DNA of 64,000 nt from Flavobacteriales bacterium (lineage in GTDB: Bacteria > Bacteroidota > Bacteroidia > Flavobacteriales_F > PHOS-HE28): contig JAXLVH010000004.1 in assembly GCA_046329105.1 (NCBI GenBank), positions 29,938 to 93,937 of the forward strand, given 5' to 3'. Both the position numbers and the translations under genes were made by a program. A model generated the notes under the pieces. That model searched no databases, had not been told where the DNA came from, and saw only the letters and a program-made list of their open reading frames with translations. The stretch's first letter is position 1; each line of letters begins with the position of its first letter. This document shows positions 7,175-58,123 of the stretch, one piece after another.

Positions 7175-7187
7175 TGGATGCTGTTGA

Positions 7188-10964: not shown

Positions 10965-10970
10965 ACACGC

Positions 10971-11360: not shown

Positions 11361-11762
11361 GGACAACGGAGCTCGTGGCTCCATCATCGGCTCCAGGTAA
11401 ATACGCTCCTCTTCTCCGGCGGCGGGTAGCTCGCGCTCTGCCATTTCCCGGTCGTTTCCCCCGAGCTGGCAGTGCCGAAGCCTACGCACCAGATGCTCTG
11501 GATGACGGTTCTTGCAGGGTCGGTGTTGGCCCTTGCTTCGGCTATTCTGCCGGCTTCCCAGCTCCGCTGACCGTACATCAGGCGGTTGCCGGTGCTGGGC
11601 TCCGTCGGTTGCGCATTGGCCTTCAACGCTGCCCTGGTGCTCCGGTACAAGCAGCCACGCTTCGGCATCCATCACGATGGCCTGCTCCAGCGCTGCTTGG
11701 TGCTCCGTGGGTTTGCCTTCACCATCTGGGGCCGTGTCACGAACAAGGCGTAATCAACCGAC

Positions 11763-14353: not shown

Positions 14354-14444
14354 GGTGGATACAAAGAACGGATGGGTGCTGGTCACGACGCACCCCCCAG
14401 TTCGTGGGGGACGCTAACTTCACGCCACGCCGGAAACTTGCCTT

Positions 14445-30054: not shown

Positions 30055-30810
30055 ATGAAGAAGACGATCCTGGCCATGTTCGGCACCGCGATCCTGCTGG
30101 CCGGCTGCGAAAAGGACGATCTGGAGGAGACGCATGAGAACCTCGTGGGCCCCGATGGTGCCAACACCGTGGTGGCCATGAGCATGAGCTTCACGCACGA
30201 CGGTGCGGCCTTCGATACGAGCATGGTCCTCACCGACGTTCAAGGTGTGCGATACAAGCTCGAACAGCTCCGTTTCTACATGGGCCACTTCGACTTCACC
30301 AACGACAACCACGACAGTGTGGCATCGTTCCCGAACAAGTATTTGAAAGTGGACCTGGCCGAGGGGGGCACGATCCGCAACATCGGCCAGCTCAGCGGGC
30401 ATTTGCACGACATGAGCTTCGGCCTCGGAGTGGACAGTGTGAACAATCACGCTGATCCGGCAACGGTGGAAGCACCCCTGGGCGTGAACGGCATGTACTG
30501 GACATGGAACCAGGGCTACATCTTCCTGGCGATCGATGGTCGCTGGGACAGTAATAACGACGGGCAAGTAGGTGAAGGCGATCAGATGCTGAGTTACCAC
30601 CCGGGTCGGGATTCCCTGTACACGCCGATGGTGTTGCAAGTGCATACCGACGCGGACCAGGGAGGCAACGTGGTGCTGCCTTTGGACCTGAACATCGACA
30701 CCTTGATGGCGGGCATTGATATCCAGGCCTTGCCGGTATCGCATGATGTCAGCGATCATACCGTCCGCCTGATGCATCAGCTCTCGACCGCGATCACCCA
30801 CGTGCAGTAG
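30055..30810 (+). CDS. Periplasmic lipoprotein, putative MbnP-like copper-binding protein (partner of downstream di-heme peroxidase)
   Basis: 252 aa. Lipobox LLAGC. Paralog of the next gene with conserved GMYWTW..Y.FL..GR.D motif. Identity as MbnP is inferred from size and context only. Confidence 0.4.
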   Translation: MKKTILAMFGTAILLAGCEKDDLEETHENLVGPDGANTVVAMSMSFTHDGAAFDTSMVLTDVQGVRYKLEQLRFYMGHFDFTNDNHDSVASFPNKYLKVDLAEGGTIRNIGQLSGHLHDMSFGLGVDSVNNHADPATVEAPLGVNGMYWTWNQGYIFLAIDGRWDSNNDGQVGEGDQMLSYHPGRDSLYTPMVLQVHTDADQGGNVVLPLDLNIDTLMAGIDIQALPVSHDVSDHTVRLMHQLSTAITHVQ

Positions 30811-31572
30811 ATGAAGAATGCAGTGCTCCTCCTCGCTTCGGCGATGCTCGTCGGATGCCGTCACGACCCACCGGTGGAACCCGAGCCGTTGCCGCCACCC
30901 GGCGGTACGCCCAGCGGCGTATTGCGGATCACGTTCCGGCCCATTTGGGACGGAACAGCCTTCGACAAGACCAACGTGTACCTGAGCGCGGCGAACGAGC
31001 GCGTACTGATCCAGCAGGTGAAATTCTACCTGAGCCCATTGGTGTTCTCGGGCGACACCACCGCTCGCGCCACCGATGCGGTGCTGCTCGATCTGGTGAA
31101 CGGACCGGAAGCACGGAGCTACAGCCTGCCGGTGGGCACGTACGACAGCCTGCATTACGGCCTCGGTCTGCCGTACAATCTGAACCATGCGGATGTCACG
31201 GGGATCGATCCCGGATCGGACCTCGGCGCGGGCTCCGGCATGTACTGGACCTGGGCCACCATGTACCGCTTTTTGATCTTCGAGGGGCGGTACGATACGG
31301 ATCCAGCGGGAACGGGCACGCCGCCCTACCAGTTCAGCCTGCACACCGGTCGTGATGAATGCTACCGTGAACGGACCATCGCCACGCCGCTCGCGATGAC
31401 GGACGGCGACACCACGGACCTGATCATCGATGTGGATGTGGCGCGTTTCTTCACCGACGGGAACCAACTGCTGGACCTGTCGCAAGGCCCGCAAGCGCAC
31501 GGGGAGGTGGAGAACCTGGGGCCCGCGCTGCGGCTGAGTGATCTCGCGGTGAAGGCCATCAACGCGGAATGA
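30811..31572 (+). CDS. Periplasmic lipoprotein, second putative MbnP-like paralog
   Basis: 253 aa. Lipobox MLVGC. Same conserved tryptophan-rich motif. Immediately follows the previous stop. Confidence 0.4.
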   Translation: MKNAVLLLASAMLVGCRHDPPVEPEPLPPPGGTPSGVLRITFRPIWDGTAFDKTNVYLSAANERVLIQQVKFYLSPLVFSGDTTARATDAVLLDLVNGPEARSYSLPVGTYDSLHYGLGLPYNLNHADVTGIDPGSDLGAGSGMYWTWATMYRFLIFEGRYDTDPAGTGTPPYQFSLHTGRDECYRERTIATPLAMTDGDTTDLIIDVDVARFFTDGNQLLDLSQGPQAHGEVENLGPALRLSDLAVKAINAE

Positions 31573-31575
31573 GCG

Positions 31576-32592
31576 ATGCCGCGGCGGTCCCTCCTTCTGC
31601 TGCTCTGCATCGCCAGCATCGGCTGCCGCAAGGAGGAGGCCGTTCCGGACAAGGAGGTGGACGAGGCGTTCGTGGTGCTCATGCCGCCCGGGGCTCCATC
31701 CCTGCCGGTGCCCTCCGGGAATGAACCTACCGTTGCAAGGGTAACATTGGGCAAGGCGCTGTTCTTCGATGAGCGCTTGTCCACGGGCAACGGCATCTCC
31801 TGCGCGAGCTGTCATCATGCGGACCGAGCCTTCGGCGACACCTTGCCGTTGAGCATCGGTGCGCAGGGCCTGCATGGACTGCGCAATGCGCCCACCCTGG
31901 CCAATGTGGCGTGGCAGCCGTACCTGTTCGCGGATGGCGGCATGCCCACCCTTGAACAACAAGTGCTCTCGCCCATCCACACCGAAGAGGAGATGGCCAG
32001 CAACATCGTGGACGCGGCCGCGGCGCTGGAGGGCGATGAGCGTTATGCCGCGTTGAGCCGGTTGGGCTACGGCCGCGAATTGGATCCCTTCGTCATCACC
32101 CGGGCCATCGCCTGTTACGAACGCACGCTGGTGAGTGGGTGGTCGCGTTACGATCGTTACGTGTACGAAGGGGATCAGAACGCACTCACGGATCAGGAAC
32201 GCCACGGGTACGAACTGTTCACGAGCGCGTCCATCGGCTGTTCCGGTTGCCACAGCGGCTACAGCCTCAGCGATCACAGCTTCCGCAACGTGGGCCTGGC
32301 CTCTGACCTGGTGGCCGATCCGGGTCGGCAGCGCATCACGTTGGACCCGGCCGACCGGGGCAAATTCAAAGTGCCCACTTTGCGCAACGTGGCCCTCACC
32401 GCACCGTACATGCACGATGGTTCGCTGGCCACGCTCGATGCGGTGGTGGCGCATTTCGTCGGCGGTGGAACAGAGGACCCGTTGAAGGATCCGCTTGTAC
32501 ACCCCTTGGACCTCAGCGCCCAGGACCAGGCGGACCTTGTGGCCTTCCTGCACACGCTGACCGATGACCGATCTTTGGACCAGGTACCATGA
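31576..32592 (+). CDS. Di-heme cytochrome c peroxidase family protein (CCP/MauG/MbnH-like)
   Basis: 338 aa. Two CXXCH motifs (CASCHH, CSGCHS) ~145 aa apart. Conserved PYMHDGS segment. Lipoprotein-like N-terminus. Confidence 0.8.
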   Translation: MPRRSLLLLLCIASIGCRKEEAVPDKEVDEAFVVLMPPGAPSLPVPSGNEPTVARVTLGKALFFDERLSTGNGISCASCHHADRAFGDTLPLSIGAQGLHGLRNAPTLANVAWQPYLFADGGMPTLEQQVLSPIHTEEEMASNIVDAAAALEGDERYAALSRLGYGRELDPFVITRAIACYERTLVSGWSRYDRYVYEGDQNALTDQERHGYELFTSASIGCSGCHSGYSLSDHSFRNVGLASDLVADPGRQRITLDPADRGKFKVPTLRNVALTAPYMHDGSLATLDAVVAHFVGGGTEDPLKDPLVHPLDLSAQDQADLVAFLHTLTDDRSLDQVP

Positions 32593-33776
32593 AGAAGAGA
32601 CACCACCTGCTCGTTGCTATCCTGACCATGGTATTTTTCTCGGCCTCGTGCCGCGAAGAGGAACCAGCGGTGCCCGACCCCCCGTCGGGGAACGAAGGGG
32701 GTAACGGCTACGGATTCGCGCCACATACGCCCGTACCGGTGGTGCTGGACATCCCGGCCAACATGCCGCCGATGCCCATACCACCCGACAATCCGCTCAC
32801 GGAGGAAGGCATTGCCCTGGGCCGATTCCTGTTCTATGAGGAACGCCTCAGCGGGGACAACACCATGAGTTGCGCGCAATGCCACGCTCCGGCCCATGCG
32901 TTCACCGATGGCAATGCGGTCAGCGTGGGGATCGATGGCATCGCCGGTAACCGGTCCTCCATGCCGCTCATCAACCTCGGCTATGCGCAGAGCTTCTTCT
33001 GGGACGGCCGCGTGGCGACCTTGGAGGAGCAGATCCTCAATCCGGTCCGGAATCCCATCGAGATGCACGAGATCTGGCCCGATGTCGTATCCAAGCTGCA
33101 GGCGGATACCGCGTACGTCAAGTTGTTCTGGGATGCGTTCGGAACGACCACCGTGGACTCCTTGCTCGCCGCGAAAGCGGTCGCTCAGTTCCTGCGTACA
33201 CTGATCAGCGCGAACAGTCCCTGGGACAAGTGGCGGCGCTTCGAGGGCACCATTCCGCTGGATGCCCAGATCGGCTACGACCTGTTCAAGATGGAAGGCG
33301 GTCCGGTGGGCATGCCATTCCAGTTGCCGGGTATGGATTCAACGATCATCGGGCAGGGAGGCGCGGATTGTTTCCACTGCCACGTGGAGGCGGCCGGGCT
33401 GTTCACCGATGAGCAGTTCCACAACAACGGGCTGGACAGCGAACCCTTCGCTGACCTGGGCCGCGGCGGCTTCAACAACGATCCGTTCGACAACGGGAAG
33501 TTCAAGACGCCCACGCTGCGCAACATCATGCTTTCCGCACCCTACATGCACGATGGCCGTTTCGCCACCATCGAGGAGGTGCTGGATCACTACAACGACG
33601 GCGGGCATCCGAGTTCCACGGTGGATCCCTTCATGAAATTCACCGACCCGGACCTGACCCTGGAGTTGGACGCCACGAAGCGCGCGCAGATCCTGGCCTT
33701 CCTGAATACGCTCACGGACACGGAGTTCATCGAGAACCCCGCGTTCGCCGATCCCGGACCGCCGCATTGGCCGTAG
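32589..33776 (+). CDS. Di-heme cytochrome c peroxidase family protein (second copy)
   Basis: 395 aa. CAQCHAP and CFHCHVE heme motifs. PYMHDGR. Start overlaps the upstream stop (ATGA). Confidence 0.8.
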   Translation: MKKRHHLLVAILTMVFFSASCREEEPAVPDPPSGNEGGNGYGFAPHTPVPVVLDIPANMPPMPIPPDNPLTEEGIALGRFLFYEERLSGDNTMSCAQCHAPAHAFTDGNAVSVGIDGIAGNRSSMPLINLGYAQSFFWDGRVATLEEQILNPVRNPIEMHEIWPDVVSKLQADTAYVKLFWDAFGTTTVDSLLAAKAVAQFLRTLISANSPWDKWRRFEGTIPLDAQIGYDLFKMEGGPVGMPFQLPGMDSTIIGQGGADCFHCHVEAAGLFTDEQFHNNGLDSEPFADLGRGGFNNDPFDNGKFKTPTLRNIMLSAPYMHDGRFATIEEVLDHYNDGGHPSSTVDPFMKFTDPDLTLELDATKRAQILAFLNTLTDTEFIENPAFADPGPPHWP

Positions 33777-40163: not shown

Positions 40164-43100
40164 ATGAGTATCACCACGACCCTGCGCGGCATGATGACGC
40201 GCGTTGCGCTGCTCGCCTCCCTGTTCGGCCCCGGCAACATGCTCTCGGCCCAGGAACTCCGGACGGTGCCCCTGCCCGGCTGCGGATTCGATGAAGGCCA
40301 CCAGCAACGGATGCGACTGGATCCGCTGTACCGGCAGCGCGTGGAGGCGTTCAACGCGGCCGCCCGGCATGCCGCACCCGGCGAGGACAGGGGTGCGCTC
40401 ACGTACACGGTGCCGGTGGTGGTGCACGTGATGGACATCGGCACGGCGGCCACGGCGATCAGCGACGAGCAGATCAGGGCGGGGATCGAACGCCTCAACG
40501 AGAACTGGCGCAAGGTCGCGGGAACACAAGGCGACGGCACGGGTGTGGACATGGGTATCCAATTCGCGCTGGCCGTGCGCGACCCGCAGGGGAATTGCAC
40601 ATCGGGCATCACCCGGCGCGACATGACGTTCAGCGCGACGTATGTGGCCAACGGCGTGATGCACAATGGTGCGGTGGGCATGCCGGACGCGGAACTGAAG
40701 TCCTACGACAACTGGGATCCGACGCGGTACTACAACATCTGGCTGGTGGGCGAGATCGACAACGGTGGACCGGTGGCGGGCTATGCGTACTTCGCCAGCA
40801 GCCATGGATCCTCGATCGACGGTACGATCCTGCTTACCGGCTACATGCCCGGAAGTAATGTGTTGTCGCACGAATTGGGACACGCGTTCAACCTGTACCA
40901 CACCTTCGAAGGGGACGTGAACGGGACGACCTGTCCGCCGAACGGGGACTGCACCTCCGATGGCGATCATGTGTGCGACATACCGCCGCACATCCGTCCG
41001 AGCGCGTGCAACCCCACCGGGACCAACGCGTGCGATGGTGGATCATTGAACAGCCTGCACCTGTTCAACTACATGAACTACACCACGTGTACCGACAATA
41101 TGTTCACCGCGGATCAGCGGACGCGCGCGCAGCTCGCCATGACCAGCGAGCGCGCTTCGTTCCTGGCCAGTAACGGCAACATGTCACTGGTGCCGCCCGG
41201 CGCGCCACAACTCGATTTCCGGGCATCGGCATCGGTGTTGTGCGGTACCGGTCAATCGGTAACTATGGAGGATGTTTCCTCCTGCCTGCCGAACACCTAC
41301 CTGGCCGATGCTGAATTCCCCGGGATCAGCTTCGCCTGGACCCTCACCAACGGCATATTCACGTACAACTCGACCTTCCGCAGGCCGACCTTCATCGTGA
41401 ACGGCACGGGCGTGTACAATGCGACGCTGACGGTGACCACCTCGTTGGGCACGTACACCCGCACGGAGAACGGGATCGTGGTTGTGGCCGGCACGCCGGT
41501 GGCCGCCTGCACACCGACATCGAGCAACGAATGCAACTGCGCCCAGACGGTGAACAATGTGGTTTTCGGTTCCATCTCCAACGCTACCAGCACCGGGACC
41601 AATGTGGCGTACACGGACTTCACCTGCACGCGCAACACGGTGGTCGCGTCGGGTGGCACCTATCCGCTCGCCGTTTCCATCCGTGCGGGAGGCAGCGCGG
41701 CCGAGGTGCTCAACGGGTACATCGATTGGAACAACAACGGTGTGTTCGAGGATCCAAGCGAGCGCGTCATTCAGGGCTCGACACCGGCGAATTCCAGCAC
41801 CACGGTGAATGCGAACGTCACGGTGCCCGGTGGGGCGGTGACCAATACCCTCCTGCGTATGCGCATGTACGGTGAGGCTGGTACGTTCACATCCGCTGAA
41901 CGGACGTGCGGTGCCGCCTTCTTCGTTGGCGATGTGGAGGACTACGGTGTGTATGTCTCGAGCAATGTGGCGGGTGTCTCGATCGCGGCTTCGCCGGGCA
42001 GTACCATCACGTACGGCACGAACGTCACCTTCACGCCCACCCCGGTGAACGGCGGGGCATCGCCCGTGTACACCTGGTTCCGCAACGGGATCAATGTGGG
42101 GAATGGCGCCACCTACCAGAGCAACAACCTGATGCCAGGCACCACCATCCGCTGCGAAATGGCGTCGAACATGGCCAACGTTCTTTCCTCGCCCGCGCTG
42201 TCGAACACGATCACCATGACCGTTACCGGTCCACCGCTCACGGAGTTCAGTGGGACTCCCGTGGCCCTGTGCGCCGGAGGAACCGTGACGTATACGGATG
42301 CCTCGTTGCTTTCACCGACAAGCTGGTCGTGGTCGTTCCCCGGGGGGACGCCTTCAACATCCACCGCGCAGAACCCGGTGATCACGTACAACACGCCCGG
42401 CACGTACAACGTGACATTGGTCGCGAGCAATGCGAACGGTACGGGCACCACCATGACCAAGACGGGCTACATCAACGTTTTCGCGGCTCCCGTGGCGGCC
42501 TGTACACATACGCGGACCTCGGCGCCGGGCTCGGGCATCGGCATCACCAACGTCACGGTGAACACCATCGACAACAACACCGTTTATGATGGTGCGGCGA
42601 TGAACAATTATACCTGCGCTCAGACGACCGGGCTGCAGATCAACACCACCTACGCCATCTCGATTACGGGCGGTACGTTCAACAACCAGTGGTTCCGGGC
42701 GTACATCGACTACAACAACAACGGGGTCTTCACCGATACGGGCGAGCAGGTTTTCGCACCGGCCAATGCCATGGGTACGGTATCGGGCAATTTCACCACG
42801 CCATCGAGCCCCACCTTGAATACCCTGTTGCGCATGCGGGTGATCAGCGACTTCGTGAACACCACGCCCGGCCCCTGCACGAACCTCCAGTACGGCCAGT
42901 CGGAGGACTACGGCATCTACTTCATCCCGCCGAATTGCACGCCGCCAACGGCCACGGCCACGGCCACTTGCGCGAACGCGTCGCAGTACAACGTGGGTGT
43001 GAACATCAGCAGCATGGGCAGTGCCGGCAGCATCACGATCGAGGTTGACAACGACGCCGGCGGCCCCAACGGGTACGTGGCCATGTTGACCGTGGCGGCA

Positions 43101-44414
43101 CCGGGCAACTACGGACCTTACGGGCCTTATGCGACCGGTTCGCCGGTGAACGTGCGGCTCGTACACAACGTGAACGCGCTCTGCAACCTGAACTTCAACG
43201 GCGTGGTGGGCAATTGCGATGGTCCGGGCGGACTGTGCGCGTACAGCAGCTCCGGTGCCACGAACATCCTGGACAACCAGACGGTGACCAACACCATCAC
43301 CGTGCCGCCCAACGGCGGACAGACCCTTACCGACCTGAACGTTTACGTGAACATCACGCACACCTACACATCGGACCTCCGGCTCACCCTGCAGAGTCCA
43401 TCAGGAACGTCCGTGGCGCTCATCAACACGGGTGTGTGCGGTTCCAACGACAACATGACCGTGGAGTTCGATCAACAAGCCGCGTCCACGATCGGTACGG
43501 TATGTCCGATGACCGGCATTTTCGCCATCCCGTCGGCGTCGTTGGCGTCGTTCAACGGACAGGCGATCCAAGGTACATGGACGCTGAGTGTTCAGGATGT
43601 GGCTGGCGGTGATGAGGGCACGATCAACAGTTGGTGCTTGATCCCCGCACTGTCCGCTCCCGCTGTGCAGGTATCGCCCAAGGTGTTCCTGGAAGGTCCC
43701 TATAGTACGGCCAACGGCCTCATGAGCGACGCGATGCGAAGCGCTGCGCTGGTACCGAATGCCCAGCCCTACACCGGTCTCGGGTACGGTTTCACCGGCT
43801 CTCCGGGCGCGGGTGGAACGTTGGGCGGGGGGGTGCTGGCGGTAACGGGCAGCAACGCCATTGTGGACTGGGTCATCGTAGAACTGCGCAGTACGGCCAC
43901 GCCGACCACGGTGGTGGCCAGTTGTGCCGCACTGGTGCAACGCGATGGTGATGTGGTAGCGCTGGACGGTACATCCCCGGTAAGCATTGCGGTAGCCTCC
44001 GGCGCTTATCACGTGGCCATCCGCCACCGCAATCATCTGGGCGTGATGACGCAGAACGGAGTGGCACTGAGCAATACGCCCTCCACGGTGGACTTCACCT
44101 CGGTGGCCACGAGCACATACGGCACCAACGCGCGCAAGAGCATGGCCGGGGCATTCCCCGCACAGGCGCTCTGGGCCGGCGATGTCACGTTCAACGGCCA
44201 AGTGAAGTACACGGGTGGTGGCAACGATCGCGATCCGGTCCTGACCACGGTGGGCAGCGCTACGCCCGGCAACACGGTGAACGCGTACAGCACCCGCGAC
44301 GTGAACCTGAACGGTCAGGTGAAGTACACGGGCAGCAGCAACGACCGTGATCCGATCCTGTTGAACGTGGGCAGCGCCACACCGAACAACATCCGGTCGG
44401 CACAGTTGCCGTAA
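40164..44414 (+). CDS. Giant secreted M43 (pappalysin/cytophagalysin-type) zinc metalloprotease with PKD-like, GEVED, proprotein-convertase P-domain and a shared ~250-aa C-terminal module
   Basis: Start MSITTTLRGMMTRVALLASLFG. Metzincin motif HELGHAFNLYHTFEG. GEVED motifs (GDVEDYGVYVS, QSEDYGIYFIP). P-domain (DLNVYVNITHTYTSDLRLTLQSPSGTSVALI...GTWTLSVQDVAGGDEGTINSWCL). C-terminal module 43670-44414 ending ...[31 protein letters not shown]. Confidence 0.8.
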   Translation: MSITTTLRGMMTRVALLASLFGPGNMLSAQELRTVPLPGCGFDEGHQQRMRLDPLYRQRVEAFNAAARHAAPGEDRGALTYTVPVVVHVMDIGTAATAISDEQIRAGIERLNENWRKVAGTQGDGTGVDMGIQFALAVRDPQGNCTSGITRRDMTFSATYVANGVMHNGAVGMPDAELKSYDNWDPTRYYNIWLVGEIDNGGPVAGYAYFASSHGSSIDGTILLTGYMPGSNVLSHELGHAFNLYHTFEGDVNGTTCPPNGDCTSDGDHVCDIPPHIRPSACNPTGTNACDGGSLNSLHLFNYMNYTTCTDNMFTADQRTRAQLAMTSERASFLASNGNMSLVPPGAPQLDFRASASVLCGTGQSVTMEDVSSCLPNTYLADAEFPGISFAWTLTNGIFTYNSTFRRPTFIVNGTGVYNATLTVTTSLGTYTRTENGIVVVAGTPVAACTPTSSNECNCAQTVNNVVFGSISNATSTGTNVAYTDFTCTRNTVVASGGTYPLAVSIRAGGSAAEVLNGYIDWNNNGVFEDPSERVIQGSTPANSSTTVNANVTVPGGAVTNTLLRMRMYGEAGTFTSAERTCGAAFFVGDVEDYGVYVSSNVAGVSIAASPGSTITYGTNVTFTPTPVNGGASPVYTWFRNGINVGNGATYQSNNLMPGTTIRCEMASNMANVLSSPALSNTITMTVTGPPLTEFSGTPVALCAGGTVTYTDASLLSPTSWSWSFPGGTPSTSTAQNPVITYNTPGTYNVTLVASNANGTGTTMTKTGYINVFAAPVAACTHTRTSAPGSGIGITNVTVNTIDNNTVYDGAAMNNYTCAQTTGLQINTTYAISITGGTFNNQWFRAYIDYNNNGVFTDTGEQVFAPANAMGTVSGNFTTPSSPTLNTLLRMRVISDFVNTTPGPCTNLQYGQSEDYGIYFIPPNCTPPTATATATCANASQYNVGVNISSMGSAGSITIEVDNDAGGPNGYVAMLTVAAPGNYGPYGPYATGSPVNVRLVHNVNALCNLNFNGVVGNCDGPGGLCAYSSSGATNILDNQTVTNTITVPPNGGQTLTDLNVYVNITHTYTSDLRLTLQSPSGTSVALINTGVCGSNDNMTVEFDQQAASTIGTVCPMTGIFAIPSASLASFNGQAIQGTWTLSVQDVAGGDEGTINSWCLIPALSAPAVQVSPKVFLEGPYSTANGLMSDAMRSAALVPNAQPYTGLGYGFTGSPGAGGTLGGGVLAVTGSNAIVDWVIVELRSTATPTTVVASCAALVQRDGDVVALDGTSPVSIAVASGAYHVAIRHRNHLGVMTQNGVALSNTPSTVDFTSVATSTYGTNARKSMAGAFPAQALWAGDVTFNGQVKYTGGGNDRDPVLTTVGSATPGNTVNAYSTRDVNLNGQVKYTGSSNDRDPILLNVGSATPNNIRSAQLP

Positions 44415-44431
44415 GCCGGTTCAATAGGTCA

Positions 44432-44466
44432 GCGAAGGGCCCCGGTCATCGACCGTGGCCCTTCGC
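44432..44466 (+). terminator. Putative transcription terminator hairpin
   Basis: GCGAAGGGCC-(15 nt loop)-GGCCCTTCGC followed by ATTTCC, 18 bp after the stop codon. No strong U-tract. Confidence 0.4.
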
Positions 44467-44620
44467 ATTTCCGCGCATGCAGGGCGCTCCATGGATGTCA
44501 CTGCGGCCACCCGATGGACAGGAGTTGAGCGATGGGCACTGGATGGATCACCGATCTTCCGCACGTCCCGTTGGGGGCTCCGGCCTTGCGGGTATTTTCG
44601 CCACAACAAGAATGTGAGCA

Positions 44621-47600
44621 ATGAAAAGGTCCTTCGCGATCGCGGCCGCGTGCATATCTGCCATTGCAGCCACAGCCCAACTGGAACAGAACCGGTACAG
44701 TGCCGATCCGCACGGGCTGCCCGACTGGGTGCAACTGATGTACGCGCCTGATGCCGATCCGGGTGCGGTACAAGCGGCGTACACCGCGTACTACGCCACG
44801 CACCCGTTCGTGAAGAACAGCCACACGCAGTATTTCAAGCGGTGGAAACGGGAACTGGGTCATGCATTGGTGCCCAGGGACCCTGGTCAGCTGGCGCAGT
44901 ATGAACAGACCTCACGCGCCTACCTCGATGCGACCGGAGCGCTGCTTGGCGATCGTGCCGCGAACTGGTCGTGCATCGGGCCGTTCGACTGGGATCATGG
45001 TGCGGTGGCCAAGAGCTACGCCTGCGGGGCCGCGCACGTGTACACGGTGGAGCAGGCCAATTCCGATGGCAATACGGTGTATGCGGGAACGGCGAACGCC
45101 GGCGTGTGGAAGAGCACGGACAAGGGGCTGAACTGGACGAACATGACCAAGGACATGCTCGTGGGCGAAGTGCTCAGCGTGGAGATCGATCACACCAATG
45201 CGAACGTTGTATGGTTCGGTGGTGCGGGGAAGCTGTACAAGACCACGAACGGCGGTACGACCTGGTCCACCGCCGGTGATGCGGCCTTCAATGCGGTATC
45301 CCACACCATCCGCGACATCGTGCTGCACCCCACGAACAACCAGAAGCTATTCGTTTGCAGCAACCAGGGCCTGTACCGCAGCGACAACGGCGGCACTACC
45401 TTCACCCAGGTACAGGCGGGCACATGGCAGGAGCTCGAGTTCAAGCCCGGCGACCCGACGTACGTGTACGCGGTGAAGCAGACCGGCATCGTCACGCAGT
45501 TCTGGCGCAGTACCAACAGCGGGAGCACGTTCACGCAGATGACCACGGGCTGGCCGGTCGCCGTGGCACCCTCGGAGCAGGAACGCACCGAGATCGCGGT
45601 GAGCGCGGCGGCGCCCAACATGGTGTACGCCCTGTGTACCGGTGTGGCGGATGGAGGGAGCGGGCTGTACGGAGTGTACCGGAGTACCGACAGTGGCGCG
45701 AGCTGGACCTTCCAATGTTGCGGCACCGGCCCCGGTGGTGTGCCCTCACCGACCAACTTCAACCTGATGGGCTGGGACGATGGCGGCCAGGACGATGGCG
45801 GACAATACTACTATGATCTCGCTTTCGCGGTAGACCCAACGAATGCCTCCAAGGTCAACGTGTGCGCGGTGAACCGCTGGGTGAGCACGGATGGCGGGGT
45901 CAATTTCACCTGCCCGGCGAAGTGGAGCCACAGCAACAAGGTGGACTACCTGCATGCGGATATCCATGACATCCGCTACTATGGCGGGTCGGAGATCTGG
46001 GCGGCGTGTGATGGCGGTGTCTTCTACAGCAACGATGGAGGGGCCACCTTCAACCGGCGCATGTTCGGCATCGCGGGTACGGACTTCTGGGGCTTCGGTG
46101 TCGGCGGCTGGACCGGCAGCCAGGTGATGCTCGGGGGTACCTATCACAACGGGACCCTGCTCAAGGACAACAACGTGTACACCAATGGCTGGGTGAGCAC
46201 GGACGGTGGCGACAACTACCGGGGCTTCGTACATCCCCAGTACGATCGCCGGGCCTTGAGCGACTACGGTTACAAGGTGCTGAGCGGCGACCGCACGGTG
46301 AACAACACCAACGGCTCGTGGGGCAAGCAACCCAATGCCGATTACACCACCGGGCACAGCAGCGAAGTGGTGTGGCATCCGAACCTGGTGAACACCGCGT
46401 ACGTGGGCAACGGCAATTCGATCTGGCGCACCGACGACAACGGGGTCTCCTTCGTGGAGGTGTACAACTTCGGGGAGTACGTCACGAGTATCGAGGTGGC
46501 CTTCAGCGATCCCAACATCATGTACGCCTGCACGTATGTGGATTGGTGGGGAGCTAAGAAGGTCTGGAAAAGCACCACCGCTGGCGCCAGTTGGACCGAC
46601 GTCACGCCGACGCCCGCGCAGCTCAACGGCAATGAATGGGTGCCGTACGACATCGCGGTGAGCGCGACGGACCCCCAAACGATCTGGCTGGTGCGCACCT
46701 CGCAGTACGGCGACTACCCGGACCATGATGGCTACGTCGTTTTCCGCAGCATCAACGGTGGCACGAGCTGGACGAACATCACCTCGCCCGCGTTGAACGG
46801 CGAATGGCCCACGGGCATCGCGCACCAGATCGGGAGTAACGGTGGATTGTACATCGGTACACGGCGTTCGGTATACTATCGCAGCGACGCGACCGGCTCA
46901 TGGGGCTTGTGGAACGCCGGCCTGCCCGCTCGTATCTACAGCACCCGACTGCTCATCAACTACCGCGACCAGAAGATCCGCAACGGAACGGACCGCAGCG
47001 TGTGGGAGAGCGCCCTCGAGTCCCCGGCACCGCCGGTGGCCAATTTCGCCGCCGACAAGCGCGCGTTGAGCTGCCTCGCGCCGACGGTGCAGTTCTGGGA
47101 CAACAGTGCGCTGGCCAACACCGCCGCCACCTGGAGTTGGAGCTTCCCCGGAGGGAGCCCGGCAACGGCATCGGTGCGCAGCCCAGTGGTGACCTACTCC
47201 ACGCCCGGTACATTCGACGTGTCGCTCACCGTTACAGATGCGAACGGTACGAACACGCGCACGATCCCCGGTTTCATCACCGTTTCCAACAGCGCTGCGG
47301 CCACGCCGGTGATCGCCAACGCCGAGGACCAGGCGGTGCTGCCCAACGGCTGGGGCCTGCAGAACCCCGACGGGCAGGCCACCTGGACCAACGAGAGCGT
47401 GACCGGGGCCGATGGCAACACCACCCGCGCCTGGCGCATGGACTATTACTACTACAACGCACCCGGCCAGGAGGACCGGCTCGTCACGCCGGTGATCACG
47501 CTCGGGGGCAGTGCCGGAACGCGGTTGAATTTCCACCATGCGTACAAGCCCTATGGTGCCAATTACACCGATGGCCTGCGGGTGGAGATCAGTGCCGATT

Positions 47601-48568
47601 GCGGGACGAACTGGACCACCCTCTATTACGAGGAGGCCCTGGCCCTGGGAACGACCACCACAGGAAGCAGCCCGTGGTCGCCTACGGCCGCGAACCAATG
47701 GGAGCCGCATGAGATCGATCTGAGCGCGTACGACGGGCAGAGCGTGGTGCTCCGGTTCACCGGGGTGTGCGACTATGGTGACCGGTTGTACCTGGACAAT
47801 ATCGCCGTGACCAACAGCGGCGTGCGCGTGGCGCTAAAATTAATGCTTGAAGGCGCGTATGATAGCGGTACCGGGAAGATGCGCGATGACCTGCGCCTGG
47901 CGGGCCTTGTGCCGGGCAGCGAGCCGTATACCGCATTGGGATTCACGCAAGCGGCCGGAGGTGGGGGAGAGGTGACCCAGGCCGGGGTCACCAGTGTCAC
48001 CGGCGACAATGCCGTTGTGGATTGGGTGCTGGTCGAATTGCGCAACGCTGCGACACCGGCCACGATCGTGGCCACCCGTGCGGCGCTGTTGCAGCGCGAC
48101 GGTGATGTGGTGGCCGAGGATGGTGTCTCGCCCGTGGCCTTGCTGGCGACCGCGGGCAGCTACAATGTGGCGGTGCGGCACCGCAACCACCTGGGCGTGA
48201 TGACGCTGAACCCGATGACGCTGGGTAATACGCCCATGGCCATCGACCTCACCCAGACCAGCACCTCGACCTACGGCACCAACGCGCGCAAGAGCGTGAG
48301 CGGAGCCTTTCCTGCACAGGTGCTCTGGGCGGGCGATGTCACGTACAACGGCCAGGTGAAGTACACGGGTGGTGGCAACGACCGCGATCCCGTCCTGATC
48401 ACGGTGGGCAGCACCACCCCCAACAACAGCGCGAACGCGTACAGCACCCGCGATGTGAACCTGAATGGCCAGGTGAAGTACACGGGCAGCAGCAACGACC
48501 GCGATCCGATATTGCTGAACGTCGGCAGCGCCACGCCGAACAACGTGCGTTCGGAACAATTGCCGTAG
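44621..48568 (+). CDS. Giant secreted BNR/Asp-box beta-propeller protein with PKD and MAM-like domains and the shared C-terminal module
   Basis: 1315 aa. Signal peptide. About 11 Asp-box motifs (S-x-D-x-G-x-T-W/F). PKD domain ([39 protein letters not shown]). MAM-like jelly-roll. C-terminal module 47821-48568 ending ...[31 protein letters not shown]. Confidence 0.7.
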
Positions 48569-48614
48569 GGGTCGTCCGCGTTTGATACGTTCGCGCTCCC
48601 ATTCCACCGACCCC

Positions 48615-49817
48615 ATGAGCATCTCGACCACCACGCCCTTCTACCGCCACATCCAGCAGGAACTCGATTCCATCCGCGAGGCGGGGCTCTTCAAGCGCGA
48701 GCGCGTCATCACCAGTGAGCAGGGTGCCGAGATCATGGTGAACGGGCGCACAGCGCTGAACTTCTGCGCGAACAACTACCTCGGCCTGTCCTCGCATCCC
48801 GACGTGATCGCTGCGGCGCATCGTACGCTCGATTCGCACGGCTACGGCATGAGCAGCGTGCGGTTCATCTGCGGCACGCAGGACATCCACAAGGAGCTCG
48901 AGCAGAAACTCGCGCAATTCCACGGTACGGAAGATACCATACTGTATGCGGCCTGCTTCGATGCCAATGGCGGGGTATTCGAGCCCTTGTTGCAGGAGAC
49001 CGACGCCATCATCAGTGATTCGCTCAACCACGCCAGCATCATCGATGGGGTGCGGCTGTGCAAGGCCATGCGCTACCGGTACGCCAACAACGACATGGCC
49101 GATCTGGAGCTGCAGCTGAAGACCGCGCGCAAGGACGGGGCCCGACACATCATCGTGGTCACCGACGGCGTCTTCAGCATGGACGGCATCGTGGCCGATC
49201 TGAAGGGCGTGTGCGATCTGGCTGAAAAATACCAGGCATTGGTGATGGTGGACGAGTGCCACGCGGCGGGCTTCATCGGGAAGACGGGCCGTGGCAGTGT
49301 TGAAGCGTGCGGCGTATCGGGGCGTGTGGACATCATCACGGGCACCTTGGGCAAGGCGCTGGGCGGGGCCATGGGCGGTTACACCACCGGGCGCAAGGAG
49401 ATCATCGAAATGCTGCGGCAGCGCTCGAGGCCCTACCTCTTCAGCAACTCGCTCACGCCCGCCATCGTGGGTGCCAGCATCGCTGTGGTGGACCTGCTGA
49501 TGAAAAGTACCGAATTGCGCGACAAGTTGGAGCGGAATGTGGCCCGGTTCAAGAACGGGATCGAGGCGCTCGGTTTCAGGACCCGCGGCGATCGCAGCGC
49601 CATTGTTCCGGTGATGCTGGGCGATGCCAAACTCAGCCAGGTGATGGCCGACAAGCTGCTGGACGAGGGCATCTACGTCATCGGCTTCTTCTACCCCGTG
49701 GTGCCCAAGGACACCGCCCGCATCCGGGTGCAGTTGAGCGCCGCGCACAGCGAGGCGCACGTCGATCACGCGTTGGCGGCCTTCGGGAAAGTGGGGAAGG
49801 AATTGGGGGTGGTCTGA
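48615..49817 (+). CDS. kbl: Glycine C-acetyltransferase (2-amino-3-ketobutyrate CoA ligase)
   Basis: 400 aa. Alpha-oxoamine synthase family. PLP-lysine motif GTLGKALGG. Start [10 protein letters not shown] chosen within ORF 48582. Confidence 0.8.
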
Positions 49818-49932
49818 GGGGTGGGGGTTTGCACCGTTCGCCGATCGGACTATCTTGGGCTGCCCGTTCCCGTTCCGCCCGTCTGGGTGGAACGACCTTG
49901 TCGCCCTCCAAGGTAACCAGATCCGCTCCACC

Positions 49933-52900
49933 ATGTCCATCATTACCCGCCGGAAAAAGTCCCTTGTCGTACTGACCGCCCTTGGCGCGTCGGTATCATT
50001 CTTCGCGTTCCAGCCCTTCGAGCTGCCCAACGCGGGCTCGGCCGTGCCGGTGAGCACCTTCGCCAACTTCGAGAGCGCGCACGTGCATCCGCTGGACATG
50101 ACGGCGGACGGCGCCAAGCTCCTGGCGGTGAACACGGCCAACAACACCTTGGAGGTCTTCCAGCTCGGCGGCCCCATGTTGCTGAACACCGCCAGCATAC
50201 CGGTGGGTCTGGACCCGGTCACCGTACGGGTGCGCACAAATACCGAGGCGTGGGTGGTGGATCAGGTGAGCGACGAGATCAGCATCATTGATCTGGCCAC
50301 CAACCGCGTGGTGCGCAGCCTGATCACCGAGGACGAACCGGCCGATGTGGTCTTCGCGCAGGGCAAGGCCTTCGTCTCGTGCGCGGGCCGCGAGAGCATC
50401 CAGGTGTTCAACCTGGCCGACCTGAACGCGGCGCCAACGGAGGTATTGTTGAAGGGTGAGCAACCGCGCGCGCTCGCGGTGAGCCCCGATGGGAACACGG
50501 TGTACTGCGCCTTCTTCGAGAGCGGCAACGCCACCACCGTCCTGAACGGCAACGACTTCTTCAGCTTCGCCCACGGGAGCAACAATGGCGTGTGCTCGCC
50601 GCAGGGCGGCTGCACGCAGATCCCGAACGACGTGCTCAATCCCAACGGACCTTACGGCGGTGCCGTGGATGCGAGTGCGGGCATCGTGCCCAACGCGGGC
50701 ACCGGCTTTGAACCGCCGCTCAATCCGGTGAACCCGCCCACCACCGACAGCAAGAGCCTCATTGTGCGCAAGAACGCCAGTGGGCAGTGGCTGGACGACA
50801 ACGGCGGCGACTGGACCAACATGGTGTCGGGCTCCGCGGCCGGCAAGGCGCGCATGACGGGCTGGGACATGCCCGACCGGGACGTGGCGGTCCTCAACGC
50901 CAGCAACCCCACCACGGCGGGCGTCACCTACCAGACGCGCTTGGGCAACATCCTCATGGCCATGGCCGTGCGGCCCGATGGCGAAGTGACGCTGGTGGGC
51001 ACCGATGCCATGAACGAGGTACGTTTTGAGCCCAACCTGAAAGGCCGCTTCGTGAAAGTGAACCTTTCGCGCTTCGCCAGCGTGGGTGGAGCGAACACCA
51101 TCAGCGACCTGAACCCGCATATCAACTACGCGAACGCCTCGCTACCACTGGCCCAGCGCATGCTGAGCATCGGCGACCCGCGCGGCATCGCCTGGAAGGC
51201 CGATGGCAGCAAGGCGTACATCACAGGCATGGGCTCCAACAACGTGGTCACGATCACGTCCACGGGCACGCGCGCCGGTACACCCGTCAAGGTGGGCGAG
51301 GGGCCCACAGGTATCGTGCTCGATGAAACGCGCGGCCTGGCGTACGTGCTCAACAAGTTCGAGGGCACGGTGAGCACGGTGGACATGGCCAACGACAGCG
51401 AGAAGGCGCGGACCAATTTCTTCGATCCCACCCCGCAGGTGATCAAGGCCGGCCGGAAGCACTTGTACGACACCCACCGCGGCAGCGGGAACGGCCATCT
51501 CTCGTGCGGGAGCTGTCACGTGGACACCCGCTGGGACCGCTTGGGCTGGGACCTGGGCAACCCGGCCGGCGACGTGAACATCGTGGACGGAAAAAGCTAC
51601 CACCCGCTCAAGGGCGTGAAGACCACGCAATTCCTCATCGACATCATCGGACGGGGCCGTGGCAACCTGCACTGGAGGGGCGACAAGCACGAGTTCGCCG
51701 ACTTCGCGGGGACTTTCCACGACCTGCAGGGACTCGATGCCCCCGCATCGCCGGCCGAGATGCAGGAATTGCAGGACTTCGTGGGCGCCACGTGGTACGT
51801 GCCCAACCCCTACCGCACGTACCGGCCGGAGAGCACCGTGGCCGCCGCTACCGAGCGTTGCAACCCGAGCAGGGTGCGTGGTACGGGAACCACCTTTCAA
51901 ACAATACCAAGTGCCGGTGTGAAATTGTGGGTGAGCGTGAACATCAACTGCGCGCACTGCCACAACGCGCAGACCGGTAGGGGCGAACTGCCCGGGAACG
52001 GGAATGTCGCGGGCACGGGTGCGGGCACCTTGGTCGATTTCACCCCCAACCGGAACATGGCGGCGGACCTGCGCAGCGTGTACCGGAAGGTCGGTTTCTT
52101 TTACAACACCACGGAATGCAACGCGGGCTTCGGCATGCTGAGCGAGGGCGTGATGGAGACCTGGTTCAACCAGGGTGGCACGGGCAATTACCTGGGCGAC
52201 TACGAGCCCGAACTCCTCTCGTGGTCCGGCGGCATCACCCAGACCAACTGTGCGGCGTGCTTCAACACCAACAACTTCCCACTGGCCAGCACCACCGTGC
52301 AGGACGCCATGCCGGCCGTGGGCCTGCGTGAAACGATCAACGGTGCCAGCATAGGCAGTACGGCCCGCTTGAACACCATGAAGGCCCTGGTGGACGAGGC
52401 CGCGCACAGCAGCGAATACGGCATGATCGTGAAGGGCATGTACGGCGGCGAGATGCGCGGCTTCTACTACACGGGTAGTAACAACTACCAGAGCGACATC
52501 ACCGGGCAGACCGTCACCCACACGCAACTGGTGAACAGTGCACAGGGCAGTGGCGGACCGCTCAGTTGGACCCTGGTGGTGCCGCAAACGAAGGTGCGCC
52601 TGGGTGTGGATGCGGACGCCGACGGCATTCTCGACCACGACGACCTGAACGCCCGCGTGAACGTGCGTGCCGTGCTGGAAGGACCCTTCGACGGCACGGC
52701 CATGAAGAGCGACCTGAACGATGCGGACCTGTTGCCCGCCACCGATCCCTTCGGCCTGGGCGAAACGATGAACCCGGCGGTGAAGAGTTTCACCGGCCTT
52801 TCGACCCCGGTGGATTGGGCGCGCGTGGAACTGCGCAGCAACGCCGACCCCGCCGTGGTGGTGGCACAGCGGGCCGTGCTGGTACAGCGCTCGGGCAACC

Positions 52901-53355
52901 TGATGCAACCCACCGGCGAGCAGATCATCACCTTCCCCGGCGTGGCGGCGGGCAACTACCACGTGGCCGTGCGGCACCGCAATCACTTGGGCATCATGAG
53001 CCTGTCGCCCTACATGCTGCGCGATGCGAACACTTTGGTGGACTTCACCACGGCCGCCACGGCCACCTACGGCACCAACGCGCGCAAGACCGTTGGTGGC
53101 ACCATGGTCATGTGGATGGGCGATGTGACCGGGAATGGCACCATCAAATACACCGGCAGTGGTAACGACCGCGATCCGGTGCTGGTGAAGGTGGGCAGCA
53201 CCGCGCCCAATGCCACGATGAACGGCTACTGGCCCGAGGACATCAACCTGAACGGCACGGTGAAATACACGGGCAGCGCGAACGACCGGGACCCCATCCT
53301 GCAGAACGTGGGGGCCACCGTCCCGACGAACTCGCGTACCGAGCAGCTGCCCTGA
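49933..53355 (+). CDS. Giant secreted YVTN/NHL-type beta-propeller protein with two CXXCH heme-binding motifs and the shared C-terminal module
   Basis: Start MSIITRRKKSLVVLTALGASVSFFA. YVTN-like repeats (LAVNTANNTLEVF, ALAVSPDGNTVYCA, ITGMGSNNVVTI, YVLNKFEGTVSTV). CGSCH and CAHCH motifs ~150 aa apart. C-terminal module 52651-53355 ending ...VKYTGSANDRDPILQNVGATVPTNSRTEQLP. Confidence 0.65.
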   Translation: MSIITRRKKSLVVLTALGASVSFFAFQPFELPNAGSAVPVSTFANFESAHVHPLDMTADGAKLLAVNTANNTLEVFQLGGPMLLNTASIPVGLDPVTVRVRTNTEAWVVDQVSDEISIIDLATNRVVRSLITEDEPADVVFAQGKAFVSCAGRESIQVFNLADLNAAPTEVLLKGEQPRALAVSPDGNTVYCAFFESGNATTVLNGNDFFSFAHGSNNGVCSPQGGCTQIPNDVLNPNGPYGGAVDASAGIVPNAGTGFEPPLNPVNPPTTDSKSLIVRKNASGQWLDDNGGDWTNMVSGSAAGKARMTGWDMPDRDVAVLNASNPTTAGVTYQTRLGNILMAMAVRPDGEVTLVGTDAMNEVRFEPNLKGRFVKVNLSRFASVGGANTISDLNPHINYANASLPLAQRMLSIGDPRGIAWKADGSKAYITGMGSNNVVTITSTGTRAGTPVKVGEGPTGIVLDETRGLAYVLNKFEGTVSTVDMANDSEKARTNFFDPTPQVIKAGRKHLYDTHRGSGNGHLSCGSCHVDTRWDRLGWDLGNPAGDVNIVDGKSYHPLKGVKTTQFLIDIIGRGRGNLHWRGDKHEFADFAGTFHDLQGLDAPASPAEMQELQDFVGATWYVPNPYRTYRPESTVAAATERCNPSRVRGTGTTFQTIPSAGVKLWVSVNINCAHCHNAQTGRGELPGNGNVAGTGAGTLVDFTPNRNMAADLRSVYRKVGFFYNTTECNAGFGMLSEGVMETWFNQGGTGNYLGDYEPELLSWSGGITQTNCAACFNTNNFPLASTTVQDAMPAVGLRETINGASIGSTARLNTMKALVDEAAHSSEYGMIVKGMYGGEMRGFYYTGSNNYQSDITGQTVTHTQLVNSAQGSGGPLSWTLVVPQTKVRLGVDADADGILDHDDLNARVNVRAVLEGPFDGTAMKSDLNDADLLPATDPFGLGETMNPAVKSFTGLSTPVDWARVELRSNADPAVVVAQRAVLVQRSGNLMQPTGEQIITFPGVAAGNYHVAVRHRNHLGIMSLSPYMLRDANTLVDFTTAATATYGTNARKTVGGTMVMWMGDVTGNGTIKYTGSGNDRDPVLVKVGSTAPNATMNGYWPEDINLNGTVKYTGSANDRDPILQNVGATVPTNSRTEQLP

Positions 53356-56325: not shown

Positions 56326-56383
56326 GTAAGCGGGTAGCTTCGTGCAGCAGCAGGGCTGGCATCAAGACCACCTGCCGGGCATC

Positions 56384-58123
56384 ATGAGCTGGAGCGTCTT
56401 TCCTGTTCTGCGGTATCTCTGCGCGCTCCTCTTCGCGGGCAGTGTATCGCTCCTTAACGCCCAAGTGGATTGCCTCGGTGTGAATGGTGGGGCGGCACTG
56501 CCGGGGACGCCGTGCGATGATGGGCAGGCGTTCACCGTCGGTGACATCTGGAATGTGGACTGCACCTGTATCGGATACTGCGGCGGCGGCCCTTTTGGGC
56601 AAGCCATGGTCGGCGGAGCATGCGATGACATGGATCCCGCAACCGTTAACGATTTCTGGTGGCCCGGCTGCATCTGCCACGGCTTTTGTGTGATGCAATA
56701 TGGGCTGCCCGGCGCATCGTGTGATGATGGGAGCCCTGCGACCAACGATGACATCGTGGACCAATGGGGCTGCACTTGCACCGGTTGGCAGAACCTGATC
56801 ACGGGTCAGGTCTTCTTGGACGTGGACCTTGATGGCGTGTTCGGCGGGCCGGACATGCCGATCCAGAACAGAACTGTACAGGCGGGTTTTTCTTGGCTGC
56901 ATACCACCACGGACTCGAACGGCGAGTTCGAGTTCCGCGTCGGCCCCGGCTTTTATACCCTCTTGGCGGCATCCGGAAACTACGACGCTCCGGCCCAAGT
57001 GAACCCGCCGATCGACCTGAGCGTGCCCGGCTCGTCCAGCACAGGCAATCCGTTGGCTATGAACCCTTCCGCGTCGCTGGCGGACCTTGCAGTGGACCTG
57101 ACCACCACACCGGCCCGCCCTATTTACCGCAACTGGATCACCGTGGTCTGCACCAACGAGGGCACCTTGCCCGCCGATGGCGAATTGACGCTCACTCTTG
57201 ATGCACAGCAGGTGTACGAGGACTCTTATCCTGCGGGGAACGTGGTCGGCAACACCGTCAGTTGGACGTTACCGTTGATGCAACTGGGCGAGACTTTCGT
57301 GGCGGAGGTGCGCGTCCGGACACCGAACGGCACACCGCTCGGGACCAGCTTGACCTACGCGGCGCAAGTGGTCGCGCCATCCGATGCGGAGCCCGCCAAC
57401 AATACGGACGGCTTCGACCATCAGGTGGTCGGTTCCTTCGACCCGAACGATATCGCGGTCCATCCGGCACTGTTGTCGAGCGGGGATATCGCGCAGGGGA
57501 CGCCCGTAACGTACACCATCCGCTTCCAGAACACGGGTACCTGGTTGGCGGAGAACGTTCGCATCGCCGATGTGCTTCCCCCGCTGGTGCGCCCCGGATC
57601 GTTCGAGTTCGTAGCCAGCAGCCACCCGTGCCATGCGCAACTGGACAACAGCCTGCTCGAGTTCCGTTTCGACAATATCATGCTCCCGGACAGCAATGCC
57701 AACGAGCCGGAGAGCCACGGCTGGGTGATGTTCCGCGTGACGCCGCAGAACTTCCTGCAGCCCGGCGCCTCGGTGGGCAACAGCGCGAGCATCTTCTTCG
57801 ACTTCAACGAACCCGTGATCACCAACACGGCGGTCTTCAGCGTCGAGTTGAGCACTGGCGTGGCCGAACCCCCACGCGAAGAGTTGACGCTCTGGCCCAA
57901 CCCATCGACCGATGTGCTGCACGTTTCGTTGCCACCTGCGACGGGCCCGGGCGCACGGCTGTCGCTCGTGGACATGGGCGGTCGCACGGTGCGCCGTGTG
58001 AACACCACAGGCCAGGGCACGGTGGAGATCCCGGTGGCGAACCTGCCGGACGGCCTGTACGCGGTACGGTTGGAGGGCGCGGGCGGCGGCATCCTCACGC
58101 GGCGGTTCCTGAAGTTGCGCTGA
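56384..58123 (+). CDS. T9SS cargo protein with N-terminal Cys-rich repeats and DUF11-like (conserved repeat) domain
   Basis: Signal peptide ([27 protein letters not shown]). Three C-D-D-G/C-x-C repeats. DUF11-like [10 protein letters not shown]...[11 protein letters not shown]-terminal [16 protein letters not shown]...RFLKLR T9SS CTD. Inserted between tsf and pyrH. Confidence 0.7.

Follow-up and report, generated by a model that had tools for sequence, protein, structure and literature searches.

A shared C-terminal module of secreted proteins in uncultured Flavobacteriales resembles an X-module-dockerin unit and has cohesin-like genes among its neighbours

Why should three otherwise different extracellular proteins, encoded close together in one genome, share the same tail? 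The question is raised by a stretch of 64,000 nucleotides (hereafter the window) from contig JAXLVH010000004.1 of a Flavobacteriales bacterium, where the genes that we call A, B and C encode secreted proteins whose N-terminal parts are mutually unrelated. All three end in one common module, as an earlier reading of the sequence (the original prediction) had claimed, with coordinates that were off by 10-16 nt (see Table 1 for the extents). With tblastn E-values between 1e-64 and 1e-112, the likeness of the copies goes well beyond chance. A and B are 69% identical over the module, A/C and B/C are 48-51% identical, and no fourth copy was found in the window by tblastn. On balance, and with moderate confidence, we favour the view that the module and a separate receptor make up a divergent cohesin-dockerin-like surface-display system that is anchored through the secretion system of type IX (T9SS).

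The last 78 residues of the module are a duplicated 39-residue unit, D-V-N-x-N-G-x-V-K-Y-T-G-x-x-N-D-R-D-P-I-L-x-x-V-G-S-T-x-P-N-N, with Y, NDRD and L unchanged in 104/104 family members. The internal duplication that had been proposed is real, and the consensus string given for the module agrees with the alignment. In each repeat, a conserved insert of six residues would divide an EF-hand-like loop in two (DxNxNG / xVKYTG / xxNDRD), and these loops may bind calcium. In the part upstream of the repeats the motifs VDWVxVELR, LxQRDGDVV and YxVAxRHRNHLG are near-invariant across clusters that are less than 50% identical (in B, RHRNHLG lies at 48176-48196). Because RHRNHLG, VDWVxVELR and QRDGD are kept to this degree, the alignment suggests that the first part of the module has a function beyond that of a spacer.

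The modules of A and B were also compared at the nucleotide level. Over the first ~60 codons they are 54% identical, with 33% identity at third positions (roughly background), and over the last ~100 codons 83-89% identical, with 67-80% at third positions. This gradient suggests that the dockerin-like 3′ part (44178-44411 in A, 48332-48565 in B) recently underwent gene conversion or was exchanged between the two neighbouring genes.

What does the module look like in three dimensions? An AlphaFold2 (AF2) model of the B module, built from a 104-sequence alignment, has a pLDDT of 89.7 and a pTM of 0.89, with residues 1-175 above 95 and the tail at 70-90. As had been anticipated, it consists of a beta-sandwich, here with an N-terminal wrap, followed by the two repeats, each of which has one short helix right after NDRDP (H195-200 and H234-239). 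The sandwich packs on the C-terminal pair of repeats and the two are superposable as one unit, in the manner of an X-module-dockerin dyad (XDoc). The module is XDoc-like in fold and architecture, with no detectable sequence homology to dockerins.

The module is not a peculiarity of A, B and C, since it ends thousands of otherwise unrelated secreted proteins. Used alone as a query, it picks up 2,441 proteins in a database clustered at 90%. When 1.84 billion cluster representatives were searched with a profile, 4,564 of them matched at E<=1e-30; at E<=1e-3 there were 12,226 matches, a figure to be taken as a maximum, since some columns of the profile lay outside the module. At least 574 stretches of GTDB species genomes match the module, with several copies per genome. 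The best 80 of these at least 574 stretches all belong to metagenome-assembled genomes of uncultured Flavobacteriales/Bacteroidota; the named carriers are likewise all uncultured Flavobacteriales/Bacteroidota, and the samples that hold this lineage are mostly activated sludge, wastewater and freshwater. The shortest host proteins have about 260 residues and the longest about 2,900. A Pfam census of 49 full-length members found DUF5122, Kelch and SBBP propellers, GEVED, MopE, MAM and P-domains, and peptidases of the M43, M12, M23 and S8 types, which is the usual extracellular repertoire of Bacteroidota. Neither T9SS tail family is among the 25 most frequent families listed for these 49 proteins.

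The position of the module is fixed. For open reading frames (ORFs) called from raw DNA, the stop codon falls exactly at the last residue of the module in 105/107 proteins. A Q-[LVI]-P terminus is found in 139 of 143 cluster representatives, the end of the module being almost always R-x-x-Q-[LVI]-P-stop. One exception is P0256 (341 aa), in which the module comes right after the signal peptide and is followed by a different domain, in a protein that is apparently cut at the contig end; no other clear case of a non-terminal module was seen. Three small proteins (P0063, P0067 and P0113) are made of a signal peptide, 4-8 short '...SNIF.GGNGRGD.ASL..P' repeats and the module. An RGD-containing repeat on what would be a surface-display tag may indicate a role as adhesin.

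Is the module then simply an unusual C-terminal domain (CTD) of the T9SS? Neither full proteins nor isolated tails match any Pfam or NCBIfam family on the module at E<=10, and this covers the type A CTD (TIGR04183 / PF18962) as well as type B and other catalogued T9SS tails (TIGR04131 / PF13585 CHU_C and other NCBIfam models). The claim that it is not a canonical T9SS CTD holds. The type A CTD is Ig-like and has about 70-100 residues; the module has 229-244 and ends in a loop-helix pair. As had also been noticed, other secreted proteins in the window carry the ordinary type A tail: there are four, with 24.8-41.1 bits on TIGR04183, and the source organism therefore uses T9SS.

The two kinds of tail can replace each other on similar proteins. 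A good example is a PAD_porph-family protein (L045:8471-10732) whose module begins at residue 511. Two proteins from other loci (L059:8929-10758 and L079:2195-3997) share 63-64% identity with it over about 520 residues, part from it precisely at the domain boundary and finish with a type A CTD. These score 23.0 bits (L059, equal to the cutoff) and 19.5 bits (L079) on TIGR04183, and Pfam finds Por_Secre_tail in the L059 protein at E 2e-5. The same alternation is seen at about 33% identity in DUF5122-propeller cargo, with the module in L016 and L046 and a type A tail in L070 (25.6 bits on TIGR04183). Judged from these alignments, the module occupies the place of the type A tail on the same kinds of cargo, with near-orthologues carrying either one.

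Which genes accompany the module? We mined 79 module-centred genome loci for recurrent neighbours and found small secreted proteins of about 260-300 residues, made of a signal peptide, a conserved domain of ~150 residues and a type A T9SS CTD (38-45 bits on TIGR04183). The conserved domain has the signature …DITLVPGQNNDLEVRVR…FSSIVFTVRW…YRYQVYAGFG…VNDxWT…DYYVSLNG and the nine-stranded jelly-roll fold of a cohesin (PF00963), and we refer to it as cohesin-like. A profile search gave 72 members of this family, most of them about 260 aa long and with Por_Secre_tail. In two of them (P0319 and P0328) a canonical dockerin stands in place of the T9SS tail, at 28.5 and 32.8 bits on Dockerin_1 (cutoff 22.9 bits) and with phmmer matches to solved dockerins down to 2.8e-8. 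Larger forms also exist: L165, L166 and L148 encode proteins of about 400 aa in which the cohesin-like domain is present twice in tandem, L173 a 1,299-aa form with a Por_Secre_tail end, and L152 an ORF of >3,500 aa that opens with such a domain. Fusions of the cohesin-like domain to Dockerin_1 are seen in P0319, P0328 (L098:10001-10735) and L163:7108-7884, and L098:11929-12159 is a 76-aa ORF that is essentially a lone dockerin.

On the module side, cohesin-like genes are present at 11/79 loci, in about 16 copies, mostly <=150 nt from a module gene. L121 offers an example of an adjacent pair, with a module gene at 3373-6990 and a cohesin-like gene at 6915-7772. This sample was biased, so sampling from the cohesin side was added. 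In a metagenome scan of 79 cohesin-centred loci with 93 cohesin-like genes, a module-ending gene lies immediately upstream of 25 of the 76 cohesin-like genes that have usable upstream sequence. A module is found within 4.5 kb downstream and on the same strand for 16/32 cohesin-like genes, and within 5 kb for 15 of the 22 that have >=5 kb on both sides. Going by how the loci are laid out, we count at least seven different gene orders. One of six individual look-ups from the cohesin side showed a cohesin-like gene directly followed by the gene for a 621-aa module protein, and the gene of P0328 lies 2.3 kb from that of a 2,637-aa S8/MopE protein with a terminal module. Could the cohesin-like domains bind canonical dockerins instead? 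Hardly any of these occur in 2.26 Mb of related loci (only the fusions above and one small ORF), which makes them an unlikely ligand and the module a much better candidate. The original suggestion of a distinct sorting, anchoring or cohesin-dockerin-like system is supported.

Some further features of these loci may be of use to others. A module and a cohesin-like domain in one polypeptide was considered and rejected, as the two are always in separate ORFs. One block recurs, with the order MoxR, cohesin-like gene, module gene(s), regulator, module gene and a long cohesin-like form. The MoxR-type AAA_3 ATPase gene recurs upstream of small cohesin-like genes, and a sigma-54-type response regulator of about 430 aa is found between module genes (e.g. 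L010:6790-8058, L026:6754-8064, L033:4925-6178 and L072:6799-8112, among others).

We propose that the module acts as an XDoc-like docking unit, composed of a beta-sandwich of about 165 residues and two 39-residue loop-helix repeats. Proteins that bear it would be exported to the periplasm by Sec. The cohesin-like receptors would be exported and anchored to the outer membrane via their ordinary type A T9SS CTD. The tail of the cargo would then bind, non-covalently, to the cohesin-like domain of this separate protein, and the cargo would be displayed on the cell surface.

Several results weigh against this proposal. Dockerin_1 (PF00404) is matched by neither the full proteins nor the isolated tails, even at E<=10, and hhalign returns a probability of 0.4% when the tail profile is set against a verified canonical dockerin. 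Since no relation was seen there, we do not count the module as a member of the dockerin family, and because the sequence-level link is weak we call it XDoc-like. Among PDB sequences, the 82-residue tail profile comes closest to a type I dockerin, 3ul4_B, at a non-significant E of 0.77 (N-D-R-D-P-I-L aligns over N-D-E-D-Y-I-L, and the second DVNxDG over DVNKDG). The whole-module profile matches nothing significant among all PDB sequences, and Foldseek against the PDB gives nothing significant either (best E 0.11). The EF-hand-like loop is non-canonical, as the xVKYTG insert parts DxNxNG from the NDxD of the 12-residue loop, and the beta-sandwich is conserved far more than a passive X-module needs, which hints at a further function. 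On the receptor side, the Cohesin hidden Markov model (HMM) PF00963 is unmatched and Pfam sees only Por_Secre_tail in these proteins, while a PDB profile search with the cohesin-like domain reaches a cohesin at a non-significant E of 1.4.

The linkage has weak points too. The remaining five of the six look-ups from the cohesin side hit a conserved housekeeping locus, made of men genes, an OmpR-type regulator, the cohesin-like gene and AddB/UvrD-like genes, where no module gene is closer than 10 kb. The binomial P of 9e-12, against an inflated local module density of 6.6%, overstates independence, because many of the adjacent loci are orthologous. A search for a cognate gene had been suggested for this genome. 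Cohesin-fold genes adjoin module genes in related genomes, but none was found in the window by tblastn with 9 and then 18 family members or by a six-frame HMM search. The window is partly syntenic with the housekeeping-type cohesin-like locus, and the segment that bears the cohesin-like gene is missing from it. Finally, docking alone leaves unexplained how cargo without a CTD passes the outer membrane.

For this passage there are two possibilities: the module is itself a T9SS signal, or the cargo is exported together with a CTD-bearing receptor to which it is bound. The first of these leads to a different reading of the whole, in which the module is a new class of T9SS secretion or sorting signal, read by the translocon or by an adaptor, and its likeness to a dockerin is incidental or secondary. 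The obligate C-terminal position with its near-invariant last residues would fit a signal of this kind, as would the occurrence of the module in T9SS organisms, its exchange with the type A CTD on near-orthologous proteins, and a cargo that is typical of T9SS substrates (GEVED, DUF5122, SBBP, MAM, P-domain and peptidases). Moreover, no other route for the cargo over the outer membrane is evident. We regard a dedicated signal as possible, if on present evidence rather unlikely, and it is compatible with docking.

The second possibility may be described as piggy-back type IX secretion. The cargo, itself devoid of a T9SS tail, would fold in the periplasm and dock onto a small CTD-bearing cohesin-like protein, the pair would cross the T9SS translocon together, and the cargo would remain tethered by the anchor of its receptor. 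We put this forward as a speculative extension of the docking model, and a doubtful one. If it were true, one CTD-bearing adaptor would serve many different cargo proteins. We found no description in the literature of such secretion by adaptor for the T9SS.

Another reading dispenses with a protein receptor. Here the module would be a lectin-like or glycan-binding domain that grips the cell's own surface polysaccharide, or substrates. Carbohydrate-binding modules (CBMs) are commonly beta-sandwiches with Ca-binding loops, and a ligand site could be made up of RHRNH and QRDGD, two strongly conserved motifs. The module-only fragments (P0043, P0359, P0362 and P0363) are called 'hemagglutinin protein' by NCBI's pipeline, with the full-length proteins named after their other domains; we found no NCBIfam model or experiment behind this name. 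A lectin function of this sort seems to us improbable. Least probable of all is a passive, Ca-stabilised stalk or structural domain with no specific partner, spread by duplication and gene conversion and placed beside cohesin-like genes by a generic clustering of surface genes: tandem clustering of module genes (25/79 loci), the sign of gene conversion in the tails of A and B and the synteny of many loci would agree with it, but a specific function is indicated by the strictly C-terminal placement, by final residues that hardly vary and by strong conservation over thousands of hosts that are unrelated, and the adjacency is to one specific family, at 0-150 nt, on the same strand and in several distinct arrangements.

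Returning to the locus itself, the likely starts of A, B and C all encode a Sec-type signal peptide. Library domain searches found Peptidase_M43, two GEVED, a PKD and a P_proprotein domain in the body of A, and a Sortilin/BNR propeller, PKD and an InhA-like MAM domain in B, which is identical to HMU13267.1 / MCC6655836.1, a 'PKD domain-containing protein [Flavobacteriales bacterium]'. The body of C has a YVTN propeller and two CxxCH motifs, and there is a weak CCP_MauG match in this gene. A GC content at third codon positions of 0.81-0.87 backs the + strand frames, and the antisense ORFs over the three genes are discarded as artefacts of high GC. The genes had been described as adjacent. They are close neighbours, but B and C are separated by a housekeeping gene, the glycine C-acetyltransferase gene kbl (48582-49817; 678 bits to TIGR01822). 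This starts 13 nt past the stop of B; the order of module gene and then kbl recurs in L002, and L001 appears syntenic with B-kbl-C. Downstream of C lie rplM, rpsB and tsf, and the ribosomal-protein and tsf genes are the source of an unusual AT skew at 54-56 kb. A promoter and terminator scan of 39.6-53.6 kb stayed at chance level, with a consensus that is ill-suited to Bacteroidota.

Table 1. Genes A, B and C, their terminal modules with subdivisions, and the proteins with a type A T9SS tail (positions in the window).
Feature	Position	Strand	Remarks
Gene A, secreted M43-type metalloprotease with terminal module	40164-44414	+	likely ATG 40164; ORF opens GTG 40098
Terminal module of A	43680-44411	+	244 aa
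Module A, first half: N-terminal wrap and beta-sandwich, X-module-like	43680-44177	+	motifs VDWVxVELR, LxQRDGDVV, RHRNHLG
Module A, dockerin-like repeat 1	44178-44294	+	
Module A, dockerin-like repeat 2	44295-44411	+	end ...RSAQLP-stop
Gene B, secreted Sortilin/BNR-propeller protein with terminal module	44621-48568	+	
Terminal module of B	47837-48565	+	243 aa; residues 1073-1315 of B
Module B, first half: wrap and beta-sandwich	47837-48331	+	AF2 pLDDT above 95
Module B, dockerin-like repeat 1	48332-48448	+	
Module B, dockerin-like repeat 2	48449-48565	+	end ...RSEQLP-stop
Gene C, secreted YVTN-propeller protein with terminal module	49933-53355	+	likely ATG 49933; ORF opens TTG 49855
Terminal module of C	52666-53352	+	229 aa
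Module C, first half: wrap and beta-sandwich	52666-53118	+	loop shorter than in A and B
Module C, dockerin-like repeat 1	53119-53235	+	
Module C, dockerin-like repeat 2	53236-53352	+	end ...RTEQLP-stop
Protein with type A tail	3310-4932	-	reaches TIGR04183 cutoff
Protein with type A tail	5015-7174	-	reaches TIGR04183 cutoff
Protein with type A tail	24293-25975	+	reaches TIGR04183 cutoff
Protein with type A tail	56342-58120	+	reaches TIGR04183 cutoff

The window holds some other features. Two overlapping ORFs of 130 and 323 aa at 203-1557 on the + strand have translations that resemble a two-ORF IS3-type transposase. At 10339-19841 there are four paralogous signalling genes with repeated 3′ ends that encode '...GKVQAKGKGELEMYFV' and look like the C-termini of class III cyclases, and the same region contains six direct-repeat families of 66-88% identity. 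At 30076-33776 a pair of MbnP-like genes precedes a pair of genes for MbnH/MauG-like di-haem peroxidases.

How does the proposed docking system compare with those already known? In its extreme C-terminal position, its kinds of cargo and the genomes in which it is found, the module is like the type A CTD (TIGR04183 / PF18962), with which it is interchangeable on near-orthologous proteins. The closest analogue among docking systems is the type II XDoc of CipA from Clostridium thermocellum, which binds the type II cohesins of the anchoring scaffoldins SdbA, OlpB and Orf2p (PDB 2b59, 3kcp, 5g5d). Compared with that XDoc, the module lacks detectable sequence homology, has 39-residue repeats with a split, non-canonical loop, and adds an N-terminal wrap and a highly conserved sandwich. 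It sits on the enzymes and adhesins themselves, whereas the clostridial unit belongs to a scaffoldin, and its candidate receptors have only one or two cohesin-like domains. Its hosts are diderm Bacteroidota, with an outer membrane to cross, and the anchor is a T9SS type A CTD in place of the S-layer homology (SLH) repeats of the clostridia.

A system closer in its cell biology has been predicted in silico for 'Candidatus Stygibacter' (Cloacimonadota), with dockerin-bearing enzymes and a cohesin scaffoldin that has a T9SS-type CTD (PMC8542988). As in the system proposed here, cohesin proteins would be placed on a diderm surface via a T9SS CTD, and enzymes with signal peptides carry C-terminal dockerins (PMC8542988). 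The 'Ca. Stygibacter' domains are canonical and recognised by InterPro, and its scaffoldin has many tandem cohesins and CBMs (PMC8542988), whereas in our case both partners are invisible to Pfam and NCBIfam and the dockerin-like part comes joined to an X-module-like sandwich. Furthermore, our candidate receptors are mostly small and single-cohesin, and the family is very large within the Flavobacteriales.

Cohesin and dockerin folds also occur outside cellulosomes and outside the Firmicutes, and the present module is similar in this respect. Non-cellulosomal cohesin- and dockerin-like modules were reportedly described by Peer et al. in 2009, a study cited in PMC8542988. Canonical dockerins have been reported in rumen Bacteroidetes and attributed to lateral transfer from Firmicutes (PMC6487960). 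Both groups were found via sequence similarity to canonical modules, unlike the module described here, and none of them is described as an XDoc-like replacement for a T9SS tail with adjacent genes for T9SS-anchored cohesin-like proteins. Our searches of the literature found no description of this module, or of a cohesin/T9SS system in the Flavobacteriales. What is new relative to the known cohesin-dockerin systems is that the partners are too divergent for the domain libraries, that the dyad is XDoc-like, that the family is very large and that the module substitutes for a T9SS tail.

If our proposal is correct, a lineage of uncultured Flavobacteriales would display many of its extracellular peptidases, propeller proteins and adhesins by a plug-and-socket of the cohesin-dockerin type. 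This display would hang on type IX secretion, replacing a covalent T9SS tail on each protein, and would raise for T9SS itself the question of whether cargo without a CTD crosses the outer membrane by a new signal or by adaptor-mediated co-secretion. For surface display, a compact, orthogonal pair of tag and receptor (about 245 aa and 150 aa) that functions on Gram-negative cells would have practical interest. Thousands of proteins now named 'hypothetical', 'PKD domain-containing' or 'hemagglutinin' would gain a functional handle, and the biology of cohesins and dockerins would extend to a large, unannotated family in a diderm phylum.

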